DNA of 63,138 nucleotides, the filler included, from Dugesia japonica (Eukaryota): the NCBI GenBank assembly GCA_001938525.1. It is 6 parts of 6 records of this genome, joined end to end, with 100 filler letters (N's around TTAATTAATTAA, not from the genome) between each part and the next. Parts side by side here need not be neighbours in the genome. Positions count along the whole stretch, not along the records: positions 1 to 8,614 come from MQRL01646175.1; 5 more parts are not named here. The stretch is one strand, 5' to 3'. The position numbers were made by a program, and so were the translations under genes. The notes below the pieces were generated by a model. It ran no database searches. It was not told the origin of the DNA and saw nothing but the letters and a program-made list of their open reading frames with translations. Within the stretch, counting starts at the first letter, position 1; the number at the start of each line of letters is the position of its first letter. Below, one piece after another: positions 2,663 to 62,677 of the stretch.

Positions 2663-2959
2663 AAAATATTTAATAATAAATCTAGTAGTAGGAGGATATG
2701 ATTGGTCTAAATTCCAGGTGTGTGATTACATAAATGATGCCATTACGAAATTATTTTTTGGGGGGCTTCAATGTGATTGGTCGCACACATGTTTCCAACG
2801 ATTTGATTGGCAAACTTTTTTATAATGGTTTTTTTGTTTAAATGAGATGAAATTATTTATTTTGTTTAAATAAAGTGGTTTAATGATTCTTTGTTTAAAT
2901 TTATCGAAATAAATGATTATTTGTTTAAATTTAATGAAATTATTAATTTTGAGTATCTT

Positions 2960-3439: not shown

Positions 3440-4170
3440 TATATAAGTGTATTAATACAAAGTAACCCTGTATTATAGGGTTAATGACTACATTGTTTGC
3501 ATAGTTACCTGGTATCATTTTTTTAGCAACCATCAATATACGTTTTATGAGTACAATTTTTGCATAGTTACCTTGCATTATTTACATAGCAACCATGTAT
3601 TATAAGGTTCATGAACGTTTTAATAAATAGTAGCCCTGTATTATAAGGTTTATGAGTATATTAATATCATTGTTAACTTGCATTATTTACATAACCACCA
3701 TGTATTATAAGGATTATGAGTGGATTAAGTGTATTAACCCTGTAATATAATGTTTACGAGTATATTATTTGCTTAGGTGTCATGTAATATTTACATAACA
3801 ATCGTTTAATATATGGTTTTTGTGTGTACTATTTACATAGTAACCGTGTATAAAAGGGTTTATGAGTCTATTATTTACATAGTTACCTTGTACTATTTAC
3901 ATAGCAACCATGCATTATAAGGTTTATGAATATATTATTTACATAACAACCATGTCTTATATAGTTTATGATTACATTATTTACATTGTAACCCTGCATT
4001 ATACCGTTTATGAATGTTTTATTTACATAGCAACCGTGTAATATATGGTTTATGATGTTATTATTTGCATAAGTACCTTGTATTATGGAATTTATTTACA
4101 TAATTCAGATAATAAATCATAGTTACCTTGTAATAGTTACATAGTAACATTGTATTATTTGCATAGTTAC
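3440..4170 (+). repeat. Tandem array of ~20-bp modules (tattatttacatagYWaccNtg / tattataaggtttatgagta); left arm of a large inverted pair
   Basis: Modules visible directly; reverse complement of 6720-7755. Confidence 0.9.
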
Positions 4171-4900
4171 CTTGAGCTTGAGAAAAATTTCAACAAACTG
4201 ATGAACAACAGTTTGTATGGGAAATCGATGGAAAGTTTAAAGAAAAGGATGGACTTGTAATTATGTTATACTAGTAAAAACTAGTAACATTTGCATAAAA
4301 ATTCTGCTTTCGGAAATCATTCAAAATTGACGAAAACCTGATTGCAGCATTAATGAATAAAGAGTCAGTTTGTTTAGATCATCCAAGCTACATCGGTCAA
4401 TCTGTCCTTGACTTTAGCAAATAACGAATGTATTAGCTACCTTACATAGAGAGAGAAGTACAGTAAAGTACATACAGTAAAGTACATACATCTTCTTTAC
4501 ATGCAGTAAAGAAGAAAAATTACTAATTATATTTTAACTTGTGATACTGACAGTAATTTCTTTCTAGATTTGGTGGATATAGGTATAGGAAAACTGACTC
4601 GATTGATGAAGAAAGATGGAATATTAAATACTTCAAAGCATAGTAGAACATTGAATTCTATCATTGGTAAGTATAAAAATAAGAATAAAAGAAAGAAGTT
4701 TTAGAAAGGATATTCTTATGTTCAAAATTTACAGCTTGCTTTCTAATAAAGAAACAATGAAAGCAAAAGACTTAGCATTGACACTAGCTGCTTATTAAAC
4801 ATATATTGACTGCTATAATAATGATGAAAAGGTCTCAGTCGAGCAATTTTGAATTGTTTCTAAGGAATATGAACTATTTATGCCCAATAATATGATAGAT
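4171..4900 (+). pseudogene. Maverick/Polinton-type family B DNA polymerase, C-terminal fragment
   Basis: Translates LEKNFNKLMNNSLYGKSMESLKKRMDL (KxxxNSxYG motif B), PSYIGQSVLDFSK, and CDTDS (YxDTDS motif C), with stops and frameshifts. Confidence 0.88.
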
Positions 4901-5026
4901 TTCATCATATCTTAATTTCTTCATCTTATTTTTCTTTAATTCATCCATAATGTTTAGATTGTCTATATTTGTTTTAACGGATCAATTAAATTACCTCCAT
5001 CAAAACCTCAATGTTCCTCATTAAGT

Positions 5027-5256
5027 ATGAAAACCAATATTAATTACCGAGGTGAAGTTATGGAATAAGTAACACAGAAAATGAGCTTTCCTACAAGCAA
5101 ACCATGTCAATTTGAAGTCAAAAGTGATAAACTTACAATTATTTCCTTCAGATCAAGAAAATGTAGAATAATGAGTTGTAAAAAACCATTGGAACCACAT
5201 GATTTGAACCCTATGATATAAAAAATTTACAATTACAGTCACTAACAATTGTCGTA
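5027..5256 (+). pseudogene. TBP-like gene remnant, copy 1
   Basis: Same reading as copy 2 but with an early in-frame TAA; runs into an N gap. Confidence 0.45.
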
Positions 5257-5306
5257 NNNNNNNNNNNNNNNNNNNNNNNNNNNNNNNNNNNNNNNNNNNN
5301 NNNNNN

Positions 5307-5958
5307 TTTCTTTCTAGATTTGGTGGATATAGTTATAGGAAAACTGACTCGATTGATGAAGAAAGATGGAATATTAAATACTTCAAAGCATAGTAGAAAA
5401 TTGAATTCTATCATTGGTAAGTATAAAAATAAGAATAAAAGAAAGAAGTTTTAGAAAGAATATTCTTATGTTCAAAATTTACAGCTTGCTTTCTAATAAA
5501 GAAACAATGAAAGCAAAAGACTTAGCATTGAAACTAGCTGCTTATTAAACATATATTGACTGCTAAGGATTATGAACTATTTAAGCCCAATAATATGATA
5601 GATTTCACCATTTCTTAATTTCTTCATCTTATTTTTCTTTAATTCATCCATAATGTTTAGATTCTCTATATTTGTTTTAACGGATCCATTAAATTACCTC
5701 CATCAAAACCTCAATGTTCCTCATTAAGTATGATAACCAATATTAATTACCGAGGTGAAGTGATGGAAGAAGTAACACAGAAAATGAGCTTTCCTACAAG
5801 CAAACCATGTCAATTTGAAGTCAAAAGTGATAAACTTACAATTATTTCCTTCAGATCANGAAAATGTAGAATAATGAGTTGTAANAAACCATTGGAACCA
5901 CATGATTTGAACCCTATGATATAAAAAATTTACAATTACAGTCACTAACAATTGTCGT
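5307..5958 (+). repeat. Near-identical second copy of ~4557-5256 (PolB tail plus TBP-like ORF)
   Basis: Direct duplication across an N gap with SNPs and a ~45-bp indel. Confidence 0.9.
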
Positions 5959-6030
5959 AAATATGAGAGTGTAAAGTTTAATCTGTTGATTGTCATGGAA
6001 AAACATCAGAATGATCTTCTCAATTGTGAC
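5730..6030 (+). pseudogene. TBP (TATA-binding protein)-like gene remnant, copy 2
   Basis: ITNINYRG...LTIISFRSxKCRIMSCK...NLQLQSLTIVV...KFNL aligns by eye to TBP LQNIVST...TALIFSSGKMVCTGAK...FKIQNMVGS...PIRL. Confidence 0.5.
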
Positions 6031-6719
6031 AGTTATTTTTGTTTCCTGTGATTGATGTTTAAAAATAAATGTATTATTATTCAGTCTTTGTTTTATTTAT
6101 TACGGTTTTAATTTAATTTTTTTATAATAAAATTAAAAAGACTTTGTTTTCATAAAGATTTACTTCAATATAAAAATAACATAATGCTAAGTAAACATTA
6201 AGTAAACAAATTNATATGATTTTGACTTTCCATATAACTCCTACCGAATTAATGTATTTCTTGAAGCCTTTAATCTCCACTTNAATCATATATTGACTAT
6301 TGCCTTCATATTGGTTTTCATCTCTTTTTTTAAAACCTATATAAATAGCATCATGGATTTCAATTTGTCTGCTTAATCTTGCAAAGAGAGCTTCCAGTAT
6401 ATTTCTGGAACTGGGATTTGATTTCCAACACAATCTAAACAAGCCACATTATGATAACTTAAAAAGAAATTATTCTTAAAAGGGCTGATTACTATGATAT
6501 TTAAATGTTATTTTAATAAATATTTACAGGATAATTGTTTACTTTTATTTACTTCTTTATAATTAGATAATGTAATAGGAATGCAACATACATTCACTGA
6601 AAATAAAATACCTGATAATTTTAGTTTAATTTAAAACAATATGGTTGCAACACAACAACAAGTACCTAAGAATTTTAATTAAAACAATAAATATGCAAAA
6701 AACATGTTTACTTTATATT

Positions 6720-7755
6720 TAATACAAGGTTACTATGTAATAATGCACTCATAAACCTTATAATACTTGGTTGCTTTGTAAATAATACAAAGTAACTTTG
6801 CAAATAATATACTAATAAACCCTATAATACAGAGCTACTATGTATTAATACACTCATAATCCTTATAATACATCGTTTCTACGTAAATAATACAAAGTTG
6901 CTATGCAAATAATGTACTCATAAACCTTATATTTTATGGTTGCTATTTAAATAAAGCAAGGTAACTATGCAAATATTATACTCATAATCTTATTATACAG
7001 GGTTACTATATATTAATACACTCAGAATCCTTATAATACATGGTAACTATATAAATAACAGACTCATAAACCCTATTATACACGGCTACTATGTAAATAA
7101 TACACACAAAAATCATATATTTAACGGTTGTTATGTAAATACTACATGATACCAAAGCAAATAATATACTCGTAAACATTATATTACAGGCTTACTATGT
7201 ATTAATACACTCATAAATCTTATAATAAATGGTTGCTATGTAAATAATACAAGGTAACTATGGAAATAACAGAATCATAAACCCTATAATACACGGTTAC
7301 TATGTAATAACACACACAAAAATCATATATTAAATGGTTGTTATGTAAATATTACATGGTACCAAAGCAAATAATATACTCGTAAACATTATTTTACAGG
7401 GTTACTGTCTATTAATACACTCGTATTCCTTATAATACATGGTTGCTATGTAGATAATGCAAGGTAACTATGCAAATGATATACTCATAAACTCATAATA
7501 CATGGTTGCTATGTAAATAATACAAGTTAACTATGTAAATAACAGACTCATAAACCGTATAATTCACGGTTACAATGTAAATAACAGATTCATAAACCCT
7601 ATAATACAGGGTTACTATGTAAAAAATACACACAAAAATCATATATTAATTGGCTGTTATGTAAATATTACACTCATAATCCTCAAAATACACGGTTGCT
7701 ATGTAAATAATACAAGGTAACTATGCAAAAAATATATTCATTGACCCTATATAAC
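6720..7755 (-). repeat. Tandem array, right arm, inverted relative to 3440-4170
   Basis: tactcataaaccttataatacatggttgctatgtaaataatacaaggtaactatg modules are reverse complements of the left-arm modules. Confidence 0.9.
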
Positions 7756-11860: not shown

Positions 11861-14219
11861 CAGTGCACCGCCACCTTTCCTCATCTACGACACATCAAAA
11901 TTCTTCGCAGAATTCTATGGCACACCAAAATCAAAAATATAAATATATTAAGTTGATACTCAAATTTTACAAAAAAAATGTTTTTATTTGAAAGATATAC
12001 ATACATATAACTGTAATATATTAATTTCACACCATTTTAATAATTAATTAATGTGATACTTGTGCTTGTTTCACTGAAATGCGAAAATATTCTTTTTTAA
12101 CGTAAATCCAGAAAGCATCTAATGGAACCTCGGAGAAGTGAAGTTTTAATGTCATGTCATTATTTAAATCTGTGAATTCTTCTCGAATTTGCAGAAGCAG
12201 TGCTTCTGTAGATTTTATTGCATTGGTTGCATAAGAATTTCGAATCCAATCATATTGTTCCGCATTAATGGAATAACAAATATTAATCAAATTTATGCTG
12301 AAAAATACTTAAATGTTCTTGGGCCAGATTCACAATTAACTGTTTGCTTTTAATTGTACTATGTGTTGGTCGATTTGAACATTTCCAAACATCCTTTTTG
12401 CTACTCTTTCTGCCAAAGTTTGAGTTTTTTTCAACCCCTGTAATTTGTCGGAGCTCGGAAATATATTCTCATTTTGAACTTGAATTTGTTATAAAGTTCA
12501 TTCAAATGCTCGAATATATCAGCCATGCATTCAAGTTTAGCTATCCAGTAATCATCATCGATGTGTTGGTATAGTTCGAGCATATTTTGATTTAAAAGAA
12601 ATTCACACACCTCGTGACGAAGCTCAAACAATCTAGCCAAAACTTTGCCTTGGATTAGCCAACAAATTTCAGTATCAAACAATGAGGATTCATATTCAGA
12701 TCCCATTTCTGCACAGAGTATTCTAAAGATTCGCGAATTTAGGGCTCTTGATTTAATTATGTTAACAATTTCAATGCATTTAGTCAAAGTTTTCAAACGT
12801 TCCTCCGGCAAATTCTTCACCATCAATGCTTCTCGATGTATGCAGCAGTGTGTAAATTGTAACGTCGGTATTGTTTTGTTTTACACAAGAGATAAAACCT
12901 TTTTAACTACCCGTCATTGCCGCAGCGCCATCCGTGCAAACAGCAATACAGTTGCTTCATTGAATATTATATTTTTTGAAGAAATTATTGGTTAATTGAA
13001 AGATTTATTCACCGGTAGTTTGCTCTGTAACTTCTTTACAAAATAAATAATTTTCTTTAATAAAGTCCTCGTCAACGAAACGTACAATAGCTATCAGCTG
13101 TGCTTTATTTTAAATATCGGTTGTATCGTCGATCTGAAGTGAAAATATTTATGCTAATAACAGTTTTCTTATCAGTGTTCCTAAAATATTGCCTGACATA
13201 TCGTGAATACGTCTTTTAACAGTATCAGCAGACAACAAAACTTTACTTACTTCCTTAACTTCATTGGTCCCAAGAATAAGTCGAACAATTTCAATGCATG
13301 CTGGTTTAATCAGTGTTTCGCCGATAGTATGTGGTGTCTTCTGACGTGCAATTAATTTTGCAACATGTTAGCTAGCTTCTAAGGTCTTAAGAAACTATAA
13401 TGGCTGATTTCATAAATTTCTTCTGTTTTTTATTTTGTTTAAGAGCTTCTTAAAATATTGTCTCGCTTCCTTGGCGTAGCTGGGATGGTTTGAATTTAGA
13501 TGGCAATTTAATTTACTCGGCACCATTGCCTCATATGATAGATTCTCGCTGCAAATGATGCAAATTGGCTTTGGAGCCGTTTCGTCACAACACCACGAGA
13601 ATCCATATTTACTGTATTCTTCGTCGTACTTTCTTTTCAATATCTTCTTTGGTTTTTTTGCAACACTTGTGCTGGCTGCTTCATCATTTTTACTTGAAGT
13701 TTGATCTTTTCCACGTAAAACTTTATCCATATTTAAAGGGGTATAAAACTAATATATTGATGCGAGTACATATATCACATGAAGAACGCTAACCAACCAC
13801 AATTAAAAGTAATTATAGTTAATGGTAGAAACTTGTTGAGGTAAATTTGTTTTGTTAAAATAGTGATAGCACTACACACGACAATAATAGCGGCGATCGA
13901 ACTTGATGTAACACGTGCTAATGCAGTTTTGCGCATGGGCATGAGTCTTCAGCCACGCACATAAGTGTCATTTTTATTTGTATATGACTAAATTTATTTT
14001 GACCACGGTGTGTACAAAACGCACTACGCAGTTTTCAAAAGTTAGCATCAGGCGTGGGACCATTGACAAATTATTTAGCTATAATTATTGTATATAATCT
14101 AGTATAGATTATATTTTGAAAAATAAGCCATTTTTTAAAAATGATAAATTGTCAAATACAATGCATTTCACCGCGGCACATCCGTATTCGGCTCACGGCA
14201 CACTGGTTCCGGAGGACTG
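11861..14219 (-). mobile_element. hAT transposon, Buster/Charlie type
   Basis: Imperfect TIRs cagtgcaccgccacc / cagtcctccggaacc; perfect 8-bp TSD agatagat (11853-11860, 14220-14227) with central TA. Confidence 0.95.
12048..13730 (-). pseudogene. Buster/Charlie (ZBED5/ZBED8-like) transposase, disrupted
   Basis: RKYDEEYSKYGF, BED-type CIIC...HL..NHP, PHTIGETLIKP, SLQIDDTTDI, CTDGAAAMTG, HCCIHREAL, EVPLDAFW. Confidence 0.93.
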
Positions 14220-15934: not shown

Positions 15935-17020
15935 AATTAAATGTCTGGAATGAGAAAAGATTACCGGAAATTAAAGGAATACATTTGGTCATACATTAAT
16001 AAATCGGGCTAATATTACCTCGAGTGGCGGGAAGTGCAACAAATGCTGAGAGAACGAGAACATCAGATGGAGGAACGACTATTGAAATTACTGGCAGATC
16101 TCAAGGTACAGGGATTACAACTAGCCTCAAAAGATAGTTACATCAAGTCACTGGTACGTCAGTGGGACGAATGGGTCACGATGTACAAGGAAGCAATAAA
16201 GGATCCATCACGGTAAGACAATTATTACACTGAAGACGTGATAAAATGACAGGCATTAAAAGACGAGCCAGGGGAAAAGGAGGAGAAAATGCGGATCTTA
16301 CGTGAGTTGATNGCCTGAGCGGTTCTATTCAACAAATCACTTTTAATGAATAAACTAATTTTAAGTCTAATATTGTGTTGGTTTTATATGTGAATAGAGT
16401 GATATGTAAGTCAATTCCTGAAATGTCAAAAGGTCAATTTCTGAAGAAGACTAAGTTGAAATATCAAATTGCTATAAATACCAAATTAAAAAAAACAATT
16501 TTGATCGAAGCTTTTATTTTAAATGAATATAAGTCATTATAAAAGGAAAATGTGTCAATCTGATTCTTTAACGTGTGTCTGGAAGAGGCCTGGATTGTAA
16601 AAAAATAATATTTTGTGCCAATGAGTTTACTAATTATTGATGAAATTAATTTGATTAATTAATTAATAAAATTAATGGATTAAGGACACGGCTACGGTAT
16701 TTATTTTAATGCGTTGCTGTCAGATGGATTTAATTTAACATTTTTTTGTTTAGTGAATAAATCTAACTGAGTATTAACTCAACAAACTCAACGGAAGGAG
16801 TTATTGAACGCACAGAAACGATGGACAGAAAAGTGTAGGGAACTGCGAAACGAAAGATTGCAGTTAAAGGGGCAAGCATGAAAATCAGCATCGAAATAAT
16901 CCCAGTTAAAACAGAAAGAACTATCCGTACAACAAGCAAACCGCCTCATAGCAAACCTAATATAGATTAACGCCGACCGTAAAGCAGTGGTGTTTAATAC
17001 ATTCAGAACGTTATGGCTAA
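15935..17020 (+). pseudogene. Degenerate coiled-coil coding segments of unknown origin (~15935-16310 and ~16755-17020)
   Basis: E/K/R/L/Q-rich readings (QQMLREREHQMEERLLKLLADLK; QKRWTEKCRELRNERLQLK) with stops, after AG acceptor-like sites. Confidence 0.35.
16435..16471 (+). ncRNA. Minimal type I hammerhead ribozyme motif within a ~100-bp dispersed repeat
   Basis: caattt-CTGAAGA-a-gac-taa-gtt-GAAA-ta-TC-aaattg; helix I caattt/aaattg. Confidence 0.75.
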
Positions 17021-17765
17021 ATAANNNNNNNNNNNNNNNNNNNNNNNNNNNNNNNNNNNNNNNNNNNNTTAATTAATTAANNNNNNNNNNNNNNNNNNNN
17101 NNNNNNNNNNNNNNNNNNNNNNNNTTTTTTATTTCCTTTTTTCAACTGCAAAAAACTAGTAGCAAAATGAATTGTGCCAAATATATTCAATGCCAGTAAT
17201 TTCTAAGAATTAGTAATGTTAAATAAACTTTCTTAATATTTGATGATAATAGAAGATAGGAAAATATTTAATATTTTATTTTATGTATATTTTAGAACCA
17301 TGCTCATTATACACCAATTATTGTGTGAATGAGGCTCACAATGGAGACTNTCATAGTATTATAGAAAAATACTATGGTCAGTGTTTTTTGGGAAAATGTA
17401 TTATATATCTCCAACATGTAAAACAATAGGTACAAACACATATACAAATGATTACATATTGAATGCAGAGCATATAGGACCATTTACCCAGAATAAGAAA
17501 AAATTAATAAAAAAACATATTAAATGAACCTCAAGCTAAGAGAAGAATAAAGGAAGCAGTTGATGACTATATAGTTTCAGATTATGAAGATCCGGCAGCA
17601 ATGGATGTTATGAAAGTTCATGAAGAAAGAGAAGTTATGTTTGAAACGGAATTTTAAAACGAATCAGATTACAAAATTACACCACCACAGCTATTTGAAA
17701 TTGATTGTGATCATTTCCAGATCATAAACGAGTTAGACGAGGAAGATATAGTTTTACAAGCTTGC

Positions 17766-19027
17766 ATGGATGCTGAAGAACAGGAACGTATTGGTGGTGC
17801 GAAAAATACTGTTGTTGAAGATGATAATATTTTCCTGCAAGAATTTATTTATGCAGAAGAAAATAATCAAGTTGTTGGTGTATTAAATCTCGCTGTTTCT
17901 AATGAAGATGTAGTTATCAAAAAGTATTTATATCGTTGCTACCAAATAATTAAAATAAATACATCAAGTTTGAACACAAATCAAATTTTGCTACCGGAAA
18001 ATTTGATCGTCCAACTACTTAAGATAATAGAAGAGTTGGAAGAAGTAAAAATTCAATTTGACATTGACGTTGAATTTATAAAGGATGACGAGATAAAAAC
18101 TTGCTTCATATCATATCGAGCTATTCCTTTAAACGAAAACTTTTTTGATGATGAAATAAAGCAACTGAATGAATAGAATAGAATAAAAGAGCGAACTCGG
18201 TTCCAGTTGGATACTGAGCAGGATTTTAAGAATAAATTTTAAAATCACAAAGGTAGCAACCATCAACAGACTGTCGGGCAATAGTTACATACCGACGCCA
18301 GTCAATCTAAAAAAGAAACGTGCAGTGGTTAATATTAAAAATGAAGATAATAAATGCTTTATTTACAGCATTTTAGCTATTCTCATAAAAGATCGAGTTG
18401 ATAGGAAATGTAGAAATAGAACATGAAAAATATATGTCAGAGTTGAAGTTTGAAGAAACAGACATGCCAATAAAATTAGATAATATTCAGAAATTCGAAA
18501 GAAAAAATCCAGGACTTTCAATTAATGTACTTTTGTGGAATTCAAATGATGTTGAAGATGATGATGAAGAGGTTTACAAACATCCCAATTCAGATATAAT
18601 TCACACGTCTAGAGTAGATAACGGTCAGAAAATCTATTTATTGATGCTAGAAGATGACAACAAGTACCATTACACGGCTGATATGGATCTGAACAGACTG
18701 TTAAATCAAGATACGAAAGGAGAAGGTGTAATAATAAGATCAAATTGGTGTTCAAATTGTTTAAATAGATTTAGGCATGAATTAGCATTTGAGAAGCATG
18801 TGATAATTTGTGAGAAAATCCAAACCGGTACAACTCTATATACCATGCCGCCAGAGAAAGATTTAGAGTTTAAGGATTTCTCTAAATGTCTGACACCACC
18901 ATTCGTAGTATATGCTGATTTTGAATTAGTTCTTCCACCAGATAATGTATACTTTGAAATACATATGCCGGTTTCAGCAAGAACGCTATTAGTAAATAAC
19001 TTTACTAACCAAACAATATACAAGTAA
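17766..19027 (+). pseudogene. Maverick/Polinton-type PolB, N-terminal region up to the exonuclease I motif
   Basis: GSSW.L..I, SGNSYIPTP..LKKKRAVVNIKNEDNKCFIYSIL, MPIKLDNIQKFERKNPGLSINV, CSNCL...HVIIC zinc finger, PFVVYADFE. Confidence 0.88.
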
Positions 19028-19729
19028 ACTTAAAAAGCTAATGTTAACACATTACCCTAAAACTAATTATGTATTGCACTGGAAACTTTTACAAATAAAT
19101 ATAAGGTTGGGAGTAAAGGTTACAGAGGTCCATAGAGTGGTAAGATTTACTCAAGCTCGTATATTCGTATATTTATTATTATTATTAGGTTTGTTTGTTT
19201 TCTTCTTCATTTAAATCAACTAAAATAAGACTTTTGATTTAATACTTTATTTAAAATAAAAATAATTCTTATTTGAAATTCTTCTTGCTTTTTTATTGTC
19301 TTTCCCAATTTATATTTTTAAATAATAATAAACTTAAACAAATTTATTATACTTATTAAAAATATATTTTGCAAATATAAAACTTTCGAATTTAAAATAA
19401 TTTAAAAATAAAACTATAAAATCTAATTATTAAACTTTTCACTAAATATTTACATTTAAAAACTTTTGTAAATAAATATTCTTATAAAGCTTTTCAATTA
19501 AATTTTAAATTTACATTTTAAAAGTTTAAACTGTATAATAATATTAAACATTGATTTTAATAAAATACTTATTGCATTAAATTTTAAAAATAATTAAAAA
19601 TTTACCTATTTTTAAAATTACTTTATTATTATTNNNNNNNNNNNNNNNNNNNNNNNNNNNNNNNNNNNNNNNNNNNNNNNNNNNNNNNNNNNNNNNNNNN
19701 NNNNNNNNNNNNNNNNNNNNNNNNNNNNC

Positions 19730-56590: not shown

Positions 56591-57784
56591 GTCTAAATAC
56601 TTTATTTATATTTAATGCATGTTTATTATATTTCTATTTATCAATAATGTTTTTCAAGAATATTTAATAAAATGTTTTAAAAATTTACTTTTACGAAAAA
56701 GTATATTATTTAAGAACAATCCTGATTAATGTCTCAAATTAACAGGATTCATATTATATCTGATTAAGGATAAAATAAGCTCTATAATTTGTCGAAATTT
56801 CTGAAGATTTTAAAAAAAAATTCGTCACAGAACACCAAAAAATATTTTTTTACACTTATTTTACGTGCTTTCAAAAGGTACTGTGACATTATTTAATAGC
56901 AAGGGCTTATTACTAATTTATCTTGCACTGATGTTACATGTTTATGATATATTTTTCTTAAGAATTTAAATGTTTAAAAATATTTGTCAAATTAGGAATT
57001 TTCATAAGGAAAATTTATTGAGGAATTTTATTGAATTATCGTATTAGAATATAAAAACAAACGAGAAAGACTTATGCGAATAAAACTTGGTAGTGCACTG
57101 AAAAGAGTTTAGTTATTGCGTTGTTTAATTTTGCTTTTTAATTAATAAAAATAATCATATCTTTAAATTTAGTTTTTTCAATAGATAATCTGTAGCTTTA
57201 AGTTTCAANNNNNNNNNNNNNNNNNNNNNNNNNNNNNNNNNNNNNNNNNNNNNNNNNNAAGAATTTAAATGTTTAAAAATATTTGTCAAATTAGGAATTT
57301 TCATAAGGAAAATTTATTGAGGAATTTGATTGAATTATCGTATTAGAATATAAAAACAAACGAGAAAGACTTATGCGAATGAAACGTGGTAGTGCACTGA
57401 AAAGAGTTTAGTTATTGCGTTGTTTAATTTTGTTTTTTAATTAATAAAAATAATCATATCTTTAAATTTAGTTTTTTCAATAGATAATCTGTAGCTTTAA
57501 GTTTCAATAGAAAAAAATAAAACCGTTAAAAAAAACCGTTGAAAAAAGAGTATATTTTGAGAAAATATGTATTTTCTAAAAAAAAATATATATTCTCATT
57601 AATTTTTGTACAAAAATAAGAATATTTATTGAGTATTTATTAATTAATTCTTGTTTTATTTTACTTGACTGTACTAACTTTTTAAAGTATTAATCGCATT
57701 TATAATCAAATTTTTGCAATTGATTTGGTTATTTGTATAAAACAATTCACTCATAGCAATTGATTTNAATAACCCAGTTTTTAG

Positions 57785-60700
57785 ATGTCCCTTAGGCCTA
57801 AAACTATTAATTATAACGAATATTGGAGTCGTTTAAGCGATGTTGCTTTAAATGTTTTGAGGTGTGAAAATGTTTCAAAGCTACAATGGAACTCTAGTTT
57901 CAGTGATGTTTATGAAGTTTGTGTAGCTAAAAAAGATGGAACAGAGGTTTATGCTGAGTCCTTGTACATGGATACATTTACTCTAATCGAAAAGCATATT
58001 GAAGAAATACAAACAGAATTGATAAGTGTTAGCATAAATGAATTTTTACCTATTTATGTGAAAAAATGGGAAATTCTTTATAAAGGACTGGAATATTTAC
58101 ATAGTTTATACAGGTTAATATTTTTAATGTGTAAAGTTTTAATTGTGATTATAGTTATGTTAATACACAACATGTAAAAAATCGAAGGCCAACCGAATCA
58201 GATATATGTTATTCTCAAGCAGTTATTAATGTGAGTGAAAATAATATGGAAATTAAAGAAGTAGTTTTTATAATTATAAATAATATTATATTTTATCTTA
58301 GATGGGTTTGGAATTATGGAAGGACACTGTTATTAAAGTTGGAGATAAATTAAAATGTTCCTTATTACGAGAAATCGAATGGTTGTTTTAAGTATTTAAA
58401 TTTAGTTTAGTAGATTAATTTATGTAAAATATATAAAATATTATATTGGAATTTCATGTGATTTTACTAGTGATTTTTATTTTCAAGTAAAAATATATAA
58501 TTTAGCTTTGGTCGGAAAAATACAAATTATAGCGTTAAAATAAAAAGATAATTTTATTAGAATACCCTTTGTTAACAATTTGATTAGTTTCTTATTTAAA
58601 CTAATAGTATCGATCTAAAGACGCTTAAGACATAATATTAATTTTACTTAAGTAATATACACTTAAACGTTTATTTTAGTTATTTTGATTTGTTTTTTAC
58701 TAAAATTTCTTTAATTATACACCTGCACAATTTTTGATTTCACTTGATTTTTAAGTACTCAATAAATAAACAATTTTTAAGCAAACATTTTCTTTTGTAA
58801 TTTCTTTTATCAATTTTTTTAATATAAAGTATAATCGACTTATGATATGTTATTCTTAAATTGAATATTAAAAATTTTGCATTCAATCATTCTAGAAAAA
58901 TGTGATAAATTACGAAAAAATATTTTATATGTACAAATGACTTGGAGTCTTAGACCCTAGTGAGAAATAAATTTAATTATTTATTTATAATTTATTTGCA
59001 ATCGGTGCATATAAGAGATGAATGATNNNNNNNNNNNNNNNNNNNNNNNNNNNNNNNNNNNNNNNNNNNNNNNNNNCACTTTGTTAACAATTTGATTAGT
59101 TTCTTATTTAAACTAATAGTATCGATCTAAAGACGCTTAAGACATATTATTAATTTTACTTAAGTAATATACACTTAAACATTTATTTTAGTTATTTTGA
59201 TTTGTTTTTTTACTAAAATTTCTTTAATTATACACCTGCACAATTTTTGATTTCACTTGATTTTTAAGTACTCAATAAATAAACAATTTTTAAGCAAACA
59301 TTTTCTTTTGTAATTTCTTTTATCAATTTTTTNNNNNTAAAGTATAATCGACTTATGATATGTTATTCTTAAATTGAATATTAAAAATTTTGCATTAAAT
59401 CATTCTAGAAAAATGTGATAAATTACGAAAAAATATTTTATATGTACAAATGACTTGGAGTCTTGGACCCTAGTGAGAAATAAATTTAATTATTTATTTA
59501 TAATTTATTTGCAATCGGTGCATATAAGAGATGAATGATCATTACAAACAGTTTAAAGAATTTCAATTATAATCATAGGGGATTGGAATGTGAAAGATCT
59601 CTGCAGTATATTAGACCACAATTTTCGTAATTAATTTTAAAAGGCTAATCTACCATAACGTTTTGATTTACTAGATTTGGGGGGCCTTCCATAAATGATG
59701 TAAGGCAATTTTAGTAGATTCTTCTTCATCACAGAATATCTGACATCCCAATATGACGTCCCAAAGATTCTTCACAAAATATATTTGTTATATTTCATCC
59801 TTGTCTCAGCAATAGTAAGTAGCTTTAAAACATTACAAAGTTAATATTTAAACGTAATAGTTGTTATAAAATTTCAATCATCCAAAAATTCTATTTAATA
59901 TATTTGCATTCTATAACATTGCGACATTCAAACTATATTTAATAACATCTCTATTAAGTTGAAAATAAGACTTATATGTGACATTACACTTCTTGAGCCC
60001 CTCCTACCCATTGTCATTTCTCGTCACAAATGTTTGCTCCTATGATCAGCTAAANNCATGTTTTTATTTTTAAAATCGGATTACATATCTTGTTGCAATA
60101 TAAGTAATGTTTACTGGTAATATAAAAAAATACGGCATTTTCATTTATTACAAATGTAAGTAACATTTACTATCATTATATATTTAACATTTCCATCGTT
60201 TTACTAGCTTTACTACGATTCACGTATTACAGTTAGGTTTCCTTGATTTAATGAAATGATTCATGTTAATTTAAAGATCATTAGAATTCTTAAAACGCTT
60301 TTCAAAGGGTACATTAATCTGTGGACTTAAGATCTGTCCACTTTCAACCGCAAATTTTCTTATTTAAATGGAGAATCCAGATTTCGTTAATTTTATGTTG
60401 AAATTATCATAAAATTTTTCTCGTGAATATTGTTATTTTCTAATAATATTTATAAAATAAAATATAACAGATGAAATTTTGGTATTTTAGCTGTAACATT
60501 TTATTTAAGGGATCGACGAGGGGAAAGAAGTGTTCATTTTGATTATGTACAGGAGGCTATAAATTCTCTTCTGACTGTTGGAAATACAATTGTTAGTAAT
60601 TTAGTAAGTATTAACTTAAATCAGACGTGGGCAACCTATGGCCCGCGCGCCCGGATACGGTTCGTTTAGATTTTTCATCCGACCCATGAAGTCTCTAAAC

Positions 60701-62677
60701 ATTTCCCATTATTTTTTTTAACAAATTGTATTTTATCATACATTGATAATAATAAGTATTTTTATATAAACTCTTACATCTATTTATAATTGATTTAAAA
60801 TAAATGTATGAAATGTTTTATTTTTCAAAATTGAATTTTAATGTCAACTCTTTCACCTGCACTATGAAATATTAAAATCTTATCTCTGTCACAAAAAATG
60901 TGGATTTGTAGATTTAAGGTAAATAAGAATGAAAAGGTATATTTTACTAATACACACATGATACAATGAAATAAGTTATGCATAATATCAACAGCCGCTC
61001 CTCTGGACGCAATAATCTGGTTTATGATACACTACTTAATGTTGAAAAGAGAAGTTAGTGTTACTTCTTTTGTAGATCATATATCAGCTTGTAGTGTGGT
61101 CCACAAAATATCTAGATCCTTACACATGTTTTTGGCATCGTTTGCTCAAGGAGAGAAACAAACCAAGTTCATTAATATTTATTTCAGGAGATTGAGCCAG
61201 CTGGTTAATAACAGTGCCTGCTGGAATTAGACTCCCTAAAATCATAAATTTTGCACGNNNNNNNNNNNNNNNNNNNNNNNNNNNNNNNNNNNNNNNNNNN
61301 NNNNNNNNNNNNNNNNNNNNNNNNNNNNNNNNNNNNNNGGCATGGCTTCATCATTCATCAAATCGTAAAAGTTGTTAGAGTTGATTGTGCAATCAACTTT
61401 GTACGTATCATCTTTTTTGTGATTCTTTGACGATCGCTTGGCTTCGTGGTCTGCCTGAATCCTCCAAATGCCGACTNNNNNNNNNNNNNNNNNNNNNNNN
61501 NNNNNNNNNNNNNNNNNNNNNNNNNNTCAGGAGATTGAGCCAGCTGGTTAATAACAGTGCCTGCTGGAATTAGACTCCCTAAAATCATAAATTTTGCACG
61601 TTGTTTTTGCCAACATGTGAGCGAGCATTATCCATTTGAATGAAAACGTTTTTACAACTGTGCATCCTCTTCGAAACTGCNGGCATGGCTTCATCATTCA
61701 TCAAATCGTAAAAGTTGTTAGAGTTGATTGTGCAATCAACTTTGTACGTATCATCTTTTTTGTGATTCTTTGACGATCGCTTGGCTTCGTGGTCTGCCTG
61801 AATCCTCCAAATGCCGACTTAAAATTATATCTTGAATGCGGTTTCGCAACATCAGTTAATATCATTATTTTTGATACATTAGATTTGCTTATTACTGGAC
61901 ATTTTCCACTGGGACTATTCGGACGATGTTTTCCCCGAGTAAATGATTTTAACTTGAACCATTTCTCATCAATATCCACATATTTGTNNNNNNNNNNNNN
62001 NNNNNNNNNNNNNNNNNNNNNNNNNNNNNNNNNNNNNNNNNNNNNNNNNNNNNNNNNNNNNNNNNNNNNNNNNNNNNNNNNNNNNNNNNNNNNNNNNNNN
62101 NNNNNNNNNNNNNNNNNNNNNNNNNNNNNNNNNNNNNNNNNNNNNNNNNNNNNNNNNNNNNNNNNNNNNNNNNNNNNNNNNAATTTATTTTTGGGACAGA
62201 GGTAGTACTTAAGTAAATAAGTGGTAAAAATAATATCATATACTCATACCCGATTTTTTTCTAAGTCAACATTGATTCAAATTTGGCCCGCAAGATGCAA
62301 AAAGTTGCCCACCCCTGGCTTATATAATCACATTTTAATTTATAAATCAGAGTAAAACATATCCATACGAGGATTTATTTGAAAATGATTTGTTAATTGC
62401 GACTAAAAAGTTTTATGAATTATGGGCTGCTGATAAATCGTCTAATTTATCTTGCGGAAATTACGTTATACAAGTTGGTATTAAATTATATATTTTTTAT
62501 TTTTACATGATATTTAGGCCTTAGAACTCAGAAAGAAAGAAGAACAAAGATGCCGATTATGCTATAACGAATCTTGGAAAAAAATTTCTGATTATTTTCG
62601 AGAGATTATTGTAGCTGATCAAATTGTATTTTTAAATACGTCTGTTAAAAGTATTGTAGATAACGAGTGCAAAATCG
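57785..62677 (+). CDS. cul2: Cullin-2, 5' partial; exons 57785-58113, 58155-58260, 58302-58381, 60510-60603, 62351-62473, 62518-62677
   Basis: MSLRPK...W..SFSDVYEVCVA...YVNTQHVK...TESD...MEIKEMGLELWK...LLREIEWDRRGE...YEDLFE..L..TKKFY...EEQRC...IVADQI follows CUL2 colinearly; GT-AG boundaries with consistent phases. Confidence 0.93.
60622..62317. mobile_element. Non-autonomous hAT (Charlie/Buster-like) in cul2 intron 4
   Basis: TIRs cagacgtgggcaac / caggggtgggcaac; TSD acttaaat / gcttatat (6/8, central TA); tggcccgc subterminal motifs. Confidence 0.85.
60990..61987 (-). pseudogene. DD39D (plant-type mariner) transposase relic inside the hAT ends
   Basis: VDIDEKWF, SKSNVSKIMILTDVAKP, FIQMDNARSH, QLAQSPEININELGLF. 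Confidence 0.78.

Follow-up and report, generated by a model that had tools for sequence, protein, structure and literature searches.

Our results suggest that a broken gene in Dugesia japonica is the remnant of a Polinton-borne family of short TBP-like proteins, here called mini-TBP. The reading that we favour, and hold to be probable, is that the locus is a decayed, internally deleted Polinton and that the mini-TBP of intact elements binds their own TATAAAC box as a late switch. The locus as such is no more than a fossil; what makes it valuable is that it leads to the mini-TBP family.

Results

The window, by which we mean the whole stretch of DNA analysed (63,138 nucleotides, filler included), has a GC content of about 27%, and the setting of the fragment is AT-rich, repeat-rich eukaryotic DNA. 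A putative left element end with an (AGT)2 motif lies at 2684–2691 (+), which is the sole AGTAGTAG within the window; (AGT)2 is the end motif of vertebrate Mavericks in the accessible text of PMC8097293. No matching right-end motif was found in the window, so that a 6-bp target-site duplication could not be read. Several ATTGG/CCAAT-like and other factor-site-like words were seen by eye at 2684–2800, inside the putative left end. Two minisatellite arms follow, the left at 3442–4174 with units of 21–22, 42 and 105 nt, and the right at 6699–7755, inverted with respect to the left and about 75% complementary to it across 540–630 nt; the left arm likely represents the inner portion of such an element's terminal inverted repeat. 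Between the arms lie a decayed piece of a protein-primed DNA polymerase (PolB) at 4174–4879 (+), which matches the PolBs of two related loci, L004 and L023 (E 1e-19 to 5e-20), and a first mini-TBP 5′ piece at 5027–5256 (+), which carries one in-frame stop and one frameshift and stops at a 50-N assembly gap (5257–5306) with direct overlap on both flanks. Beyond the gap come a duplicate of 4557–5026, comprising the PolB end and the spacer (5307–5729, +), a second copy of the mini-TBP 5′ half (5730–5971, +) holding repeat 1 and the first strand of repeat 2, and AT-rich sequence without a protein match (5972–6614) that is fused to the broken TBP gene.

Taken as a whole, 4557–5256 recurs at 5307–5959 with 97–98% identity and a 47-nt indel, the 50-N gap standing between the two. 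Direct overlaps flank four of the five 50-N gaps of the window and one of its 19 other gaps; because overlaps are concentrated at 50-N gaps, the doubled stretch of about 700 bp is a probable assembly overlap, and the duplicate is probably the other haplotype joined by the assembly rather than a second gene. On the same counts a true tandem gene duplication was considered less likely. Like direct overlaps occur at N gaps at 56960–57507, 58567–59539 and 61184–61819, which points to a systematic assembly artefact. Two further readings of the window concern other genes. A 24-codon, ATG-started reading at 4874–4948 (−), divergent from the TBP gene and ending at the PolB break, may have opened a neighbouring gene that has since been lost, and has no homologue among the related loci. 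ORF pieces at 12431–13748 (−) are ones that we take to resemble a hAT/ZBED-type transposase.

The TBP-like reading starts from ATG 5027 in the first copy and from 5730 in the duplicate, and is broken by a frameshift near 5915 in the second copy (equivalent to 5212 in the first). When 103 natural relatives are combined into a profile, it matches the window at E 4e-19 through its positions 1–64, weakly past the frameshift and not at all beyond; elsewhere in the window the best background match has E 1.3. The closest intact relative, P0033 (150 aa), is 73% identical to the window piece across 60 residues and matches it again to about residue 81 of 150, ending at about 5971. The sequence-only reading had described one intronless ORF on the strand of the polymerase; the peptides, the strand and the lack of an intron were all confirmed, but the peptides lie in three frames and not in one ORF, and the quoted KFNL falls past the end of homology, in unrelated sequence. 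Its suggestion of a decayed FxSGKxxxxG motif agrees with the intact relatives, in which the Arg and the Ser of the window are replaced by Gly (in 86% and 100% of the 103 rows, respectively). Position 5970 is where 44 host contigs in X1, 37 in X2 and 30 of 77 RNA reads from X14 diverge from the window; the window copy is therefore broken at that point and fused to other sequence. Most of the second TBP repeat is missing from the copy, with only its first strand left. The gene is therefore TBP-like by identity, as had been proposed, but it retains only about 80 of 150 residues and is a dead copy, which, judged by its sequence, is unable to make the mini-TBP protein.

Searches with the fragment itself gave little. 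Pfam returned no families from the six reading frames of the region and no TBP match for the window piece alone, a PDB sequence search with the piece returned no chain at all, and so no solved cellular TBP, at E≤10, and a word-based search with it among longer proteins yielded 0 of 4 candidates. The piece is tied to the TBP family through its 73%-identical intact relative.

A full phmmer search found 12 relatives of 94–229 aa, and 8 of these 12 best relatives pass the Pfam cut-off for TBP (PF00352; best E 3e-18). The profile of the 12 retrieved at least 309 family proteins, of which the best 120 were listed and 103 aligned (median length 150 aa); the family profile matches 35 solved TBP-containing sequences. 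Among the 103 aligned proteins the C-terminal stirrup is conserved (E97 95%, P98 99%, E99 99%, F101 98%) and its motif aligns with the same motif of solved TBPs. Three candidates for the DNA-intercalating phenylalanines are also conserved, one in repeat 1 and two in repeat 2 (F41 100%, F101 98%, F117 99%); mapping by eye through the repeat symmetry gave no clear counterpart of the fourth in the family. In addition, the DNA-facing strands carry family-specific residues (N6 97%, M49 100%, C113 100%, N115 100%). The ratio dN/dS was 0.14–0.33 in all five hand-picked pairs of intact TBP genes, one pair being near saturation, and from these sequence comparisons the intact genes are shown to be under purifying selection. 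A search for longer or fused forms found three among 7,991 scored proteins: two are divergent TBP-like proteins, and the third belongs to the family and is extended at its C-terminus. In P0136, a mini-TBP, the extension is of about 190 aa and possibly reflects fusion with the downstream gene. An Atlas search with the member P0005 returned TBP clusters only.

In cellular TBP the second helix of the first repeat is a surface for TFIIA, Brf1 and TAF1, and host regulators grip it; the first repeat faces the 3′ end of the TATA box. The AlphaFold2 model of P0005, a natural member (pLDDT 96.5), superposes on human TBP over 145 of 148 residues in both repeats (VIA-align, Z 13.2, rmsd 2.5 Å), the best non-TBP match having Z 7.1, and with Foldseek at E≤0.001 all 44 among the matches listed are TBP chains. 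The TBP fold expected from the broken copy is thus recovered in the model of an intact relative as a two-repeat saddle. DSSP assigns no helix between strands 45–51 and 65–78 of repeat 1, and profile comparison shows a gap matching the absent second helix. Mini-TBP is accordingly predicted by the model to be a two-repeat saddle that lacks the second helix of the first repeat. In the accessible text of PMC10005294, the C-terminal stirrup of TBP holds the main TFIIB contacts and four phenylalanines kink the TATA box at steps 1–2 and 7–8. Conservation of the stirrup would allow mini-TBP to bind TFIIB.

Genes around the intact relatives were compared in 60 related loci, all retrieved through the TBP gene, which represent related lineages and not independent events. 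At least one of the ATPase, integrase, protease, PolB and putative capsid genes is present in 26 of the 60, and core Polinton genes occur in 10 of 13 loci of at least 4 kb. One of the three misses, L060 (E 5e-4), carries bacterial-type genes and was rejected as a false locus, although it is still counted among the 60. The Pfam scan, covering 48 of 299 neighbouring ORFs, found rve (E 1e-12 to 2e-14), Pox_A32 (E 2e-6) and Peptidase_C5 (E 1e-5); PolB is present in four of the 60 loci, and that of L053 matches PF03175 at E 2e-21. The closest PolBs, those of L004 and L023, have no PF03175 match. Beta adintovirus PolB is described, in the accessible text of PMC8502044, as less than 30% identical to the pfam03175 type and as having an N-terminal OTU domain, and the lack of a PF03175 match in the L004 and L023 polymerases would fit that class. 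Putative capsid-type ORFs (about 410 aa and 340–510 aa) are conserved and stand in the expected gene order; the labels capsid, penton and core were given from size, gene order and known motifs, and Pfam found a weak double-jelly-roll match in one of eight putative capsids (E 0.039). The window holds no integrase, packaging ATPase or protease. Linkage to PolB, ATPase and integrase was found beside the intact relatives, where the second TBP repeat is also present. The earlier proposal of an endogenous Polinton lineage with its own TBP-like factor is supported, as the family is predicted to fold as TBP and lies among Polinton core genes; a role as a basal transcription factor would follow from the fold, the conserved residues and a promoter-like motif.

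The commonest neighbour of mini-TBP is a cluster of 22 ORFs in 21 loci (e.g. L004:1788–2135), whose model resembles the T7 gp2.5/Enc34 ssDNA-binding proteins and ASFV CP312R (Z 8.4, 8.3, 8.0 and 6.7). Pfam found no match in the two members scanned. Several copies of this SSB-like gene seem to have an upstream intron. It had been a candidate transcription-factor partner, which its fold ruled out. No TFIIB-like protein or other viral partner was recognised in the 48 neighbouring ORFs scanned out of 299, and no RNA polymerase gene was seen in the related loci. Also near mini-TBP genes are KilA-N and phospholipase A2-like genes (L053:7142–9484) and a leucine-rich-repeat protein (L041:1918–3327).

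The promoter-like motif, YATAAAC, was chosen by eye from the same loci in which it was then counted, in the 120 nt before gene starts on the sense strand, with genes collapsed at 85% protein identity. It precedes the ATPase gene in 12 of 13 cases, 10 of them at 32–37 nt, and the gene that follows the ATPase in 9 of 10, and it is found before the putative major capsid (8/8), putative core (6/6), putative penton (6/8), integrase (6/7), exonuclease-like (7/8) and protease (3/5) genes. Antisense copies number 0 for all the motif-rich gene groups, for which shuffles expect 0.2–0.7. The count is 1 of 33 before the TBP gene itself (shuffles 1.5) and 3 of 18 before the SSB-like neighbour (shuffles 0.8), and five unnamed gene groups gave 0/4, 0/3, 0/6, 1/4 and 2/3. 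The canonical TATAWAWR stands before 14 of the 33 TBP genes, a raw count that has no shuffle baseline. No YATAAAC occurs in the window at 4171–6640, as expected ahead of a TBP gene. Many copies of the motif fall within the last coding stretch of the preceding gene and may owe something to protein constraint there. The motif also stands before the integrase gene, whose product is no structural part of the virion. Scans of viral contigs with the window piece, two TBP alignments, the ATPase and the putative capsid confirmed no locus, and those with the ATPase and the putative capsid found no TBP-independent Polintons. Because all the loci were retrieved through the TBP gene and no TBP-less Polinton was found, the motif may be common to Polintons that lack TBP.

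The polymerase piece, which also matches the PolB of L053, ends 147 bp before ATG 5027. Against a C-terminal profile of 290 positions, built from four natural C-termini, it runs to position 250 and so ends about 40 codons short. A decayed protein-primed PolB upstream of the TBP-like gene, as first reported, is therefore present, but with a spacing of 147 rather than about 130 bp. The description of the gene as directly downstream of the polymerase did not hold, since the PolB is truncated and none of the four PolB-bearing related loci has that order; the adjacency probably results from deletion, as far as the sequence can tell. Another host copy spans the junction, in a contig over 4827–5024 with 25 differences in 199 nt. 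Summed contig depth, which is not copy number, is about 220 at the junction (218), with 25 for the contig that matches the locus exactly, mostly 200–2,500 over PolB with one bin at 17,000, and about 100,000–458,000 over TBP. These depths suggest that most TBP-bearing copies in the host lack the PolB–TBP junction. We infer that the locus is an internally deleted, non-autonomous Polinton derivative. Over the TBP 5′ half (5096–5243), depth is about 100 times that of most of the PolB piece, which is again not copy number but gives a hint that the host has a TBP-bearing family present in very many copies. A second decayed PolB remnant, at 17500–19163 (+), is an N-terminal part with a large internal deletion, corresponding to residues 10–335 and 753–799 of the L004 polymerase. 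In the same numbering the polymerase piece at 4174 begins with residue 817, so the two remnants complement each other but stand in swapped order; they may derive from a single element that rearrangement or scaffolding has split.

Poly(A) RNA reads under the same species label, for which 6–26% of each run was read, cover the TBP part at low depth. A strand bias was seen in X13 and X14 (in X13 the first mate on the minus strand at 32–63 and on the plus strand at 5–18, taking the library as stranded); X16 has no clear strand bias and X12 almost no reads on the gene. Two of 346 reads match the window at 99% identity or more (0 of 217, 0 of 29, 0 of 23 and 2 of 77), so the RNA comes almost wholly from other copies. 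The mini-TBP family appears to be highly repeated in the host and weakly transcribed from these other copies.

Discussion

Two other origins of the window locus have to be weighed against an internally deleted Polinton. It is hardly credible that the window piece is a processed pseudogene or captured fragment of a host TBP or TRF gene lying beside a Polinton remnant. Such a pseudogene would likewise be intronless, decayed and situated in a repeat-rich host region; however, the piece is 73% identical to an intact mini-TBP and finds no counterpart among solved cellular TBPs at E≤10, from which we conclude that it is not a processed host pseudogene, and the lack of a Pfam TBP match, the start at the family Met and the short link in place of the second helix of repeat 1 argue the same way. 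Rather improbable, too, is that the PolB-to-TBP tandem is the native layout of the Polinton family in this genome and owes nothing to deletion. The presence of at least one other copy that spans the junction, with its 25 differences, and the variation of gene order around TBP among the loci are both what a native layout could produce. The polymerase nevertheless lacks its last 40 or so profile positions, the junction depth of 218 is far below that over TBP (neither being copy number), and the order is found in 0 of 4 PolB-bearing loci.

The more serious question is what reads the TATAAAC box. We take the C(−25) TATA variant to be TATAAAC. Wild-type cellular TBP has been crystallised on that variant (title of PDB 1qn3), and thus host TBP could read the box, in which case mini-TBP would have a different task, for instance to titrate TFIIB or the regulators of TBP as a decoy, or to bend DNA during replication or packaging. 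This tolerance of cellular TBP, the remodelled repeat 1 of mini-TBP without its second helix and with one intercalating phenylalanine lacking a clear counterpart, and the T7 gp2.5-like ssDNA-binding fold of the commonest neighbour (Z 8.0–8.4) all speak for this alternative, as does the ability of divergent TBPs, such as that of Giardia, to bind DNA in other forms (accessible text of PMC12209930). We nevertheless consider it unlikely, albeit a real contender. The invariant family-specific residues on the DNA-facing strands (N6, M49, C113, N115) are as expected for a specificity that is changed but fixed, and the motif avoids the region upstream of the TBP gene itself (1 of 33).

If mini-TBP does act as a late switch, it would be transcribed early by the host machinery from host-read promoters and would then bind TATAAAC, with its remodelled repeat 1 facing the deviant 3′ C. 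The conserved C-terminal stirrup would recruit host TFIIB and RNA polymerase II, the packaging, integration and virion genes would be switched on late, and mini-TBP would escape the host regulators that grip the missing helix. Beyond the motif distribution, we infer the steps of this model, namely early expression, DNA binding, TFIIB recruitment and regulator escape. The TBP-like BcRF1 of EBV and its TATT late promoters, as presented in the accessible text of PMC4922670, are a precedent for the logic of such a switch. The chances seem to us about even that a widespread Polinton lineage carries a one-protein late switch, consisting of the smallest TBP, without the host-regulated surface, and a TATAAAC promoter of its own. 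In that case an integrating virus of 15–20 kb would divert the RNA polymerase II of its host to the virion genes and, unlike the herpesviruses, would need no multi-protein complex.

A dedicated TBP and box would bear on how Polintons time their genes and on whether they form particles. Were the model true, the protein and its matching box would amount to a virus-like early-to-late programme for Polintons, and they would offer both a direct assay, in which the protein is paired with a 7-bp box, and a marker of those elements that can enter a late phase. From a natural TBP of 150 residues one could also learn which parts of the TBP surface polymerase II initiation can do without.

Large nucleocytoplasmic DNA viruses mostly encode their own RNA polymerase. 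Viral TBP homologues are already known from these giant viruses and from herpesviruses; for the short family and its motif we found no published account. In the accessible literature we found no analysis of a Polinton TBP or of a TATAAAC promoter beyond one figure legend, that of Fig. 5 of Starrett et al. 2021 (PMC8502044), which labels a TBP gene. The virus concerned shares with our loci a TBP-like gene, mid-sized linear DNA and an adintovirus-like PolB; in the accessible text the gene is a label only, in the section on non-animal hosts, without analysis of fold, family or promoter, and one supplement of that paper has no match for TBP. Protein-primed PolB, rve, packaging ATPase and adenovirus-type protease are common to the Polintons/Mavericks (adintoviruses) and our related loci, and the (AGT)2 end motif (accessible text of PMC8097293) is also seen at the putative left end of the window copy, which differs in being non-autonomous and degraded. 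TBP is absent from the Polinton core genes described in the accessible parts of PMC6431247 and PMC8097293.

The NCLDV TBPs in BFVD, including that of the Heterosigma akashiwo virus (A0A1C9C511, E 2.4e-8) and ASFV B263R-like proteins, share a divergent TBP fold with mini-TBP but are larger (186 to more than 500 aa) and 10–20% identical to it. EBV BcRF1 shares its logic, being a viral TBP-like protein that pairs an altered TATA box with structural genes (accessible text of PMC4922670), but it is long (577 aa in the macaque homologue) and works in a six-protein complex, whereas mini-TBP is minimal and no partner was seen. The herpesvirus late complex combines TATT promoters with five partner proteins, while the mini-TBP loci have TATAAAC and no partner homologue among 48 ORFs. 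In fold, mini-TBP matches BcRF1 weakly (E 7.8e-3) and is closer to cellular TBP/TRF (PF00352; PDB 7egb_P, 1cdw_A, 1ytb_A), with which it shares the two-repeat saddle over 145 of 148 residues, the C-terminal stirrup and three phenylalanine candidates. It differs from the cellular protein in its core of about 150 rather than about 180 residues, in an identity of 21–25%, in the modelled absence of the second helix of repeat 1, and in being encoded by a mobile element and linked to a TATAAAC box.
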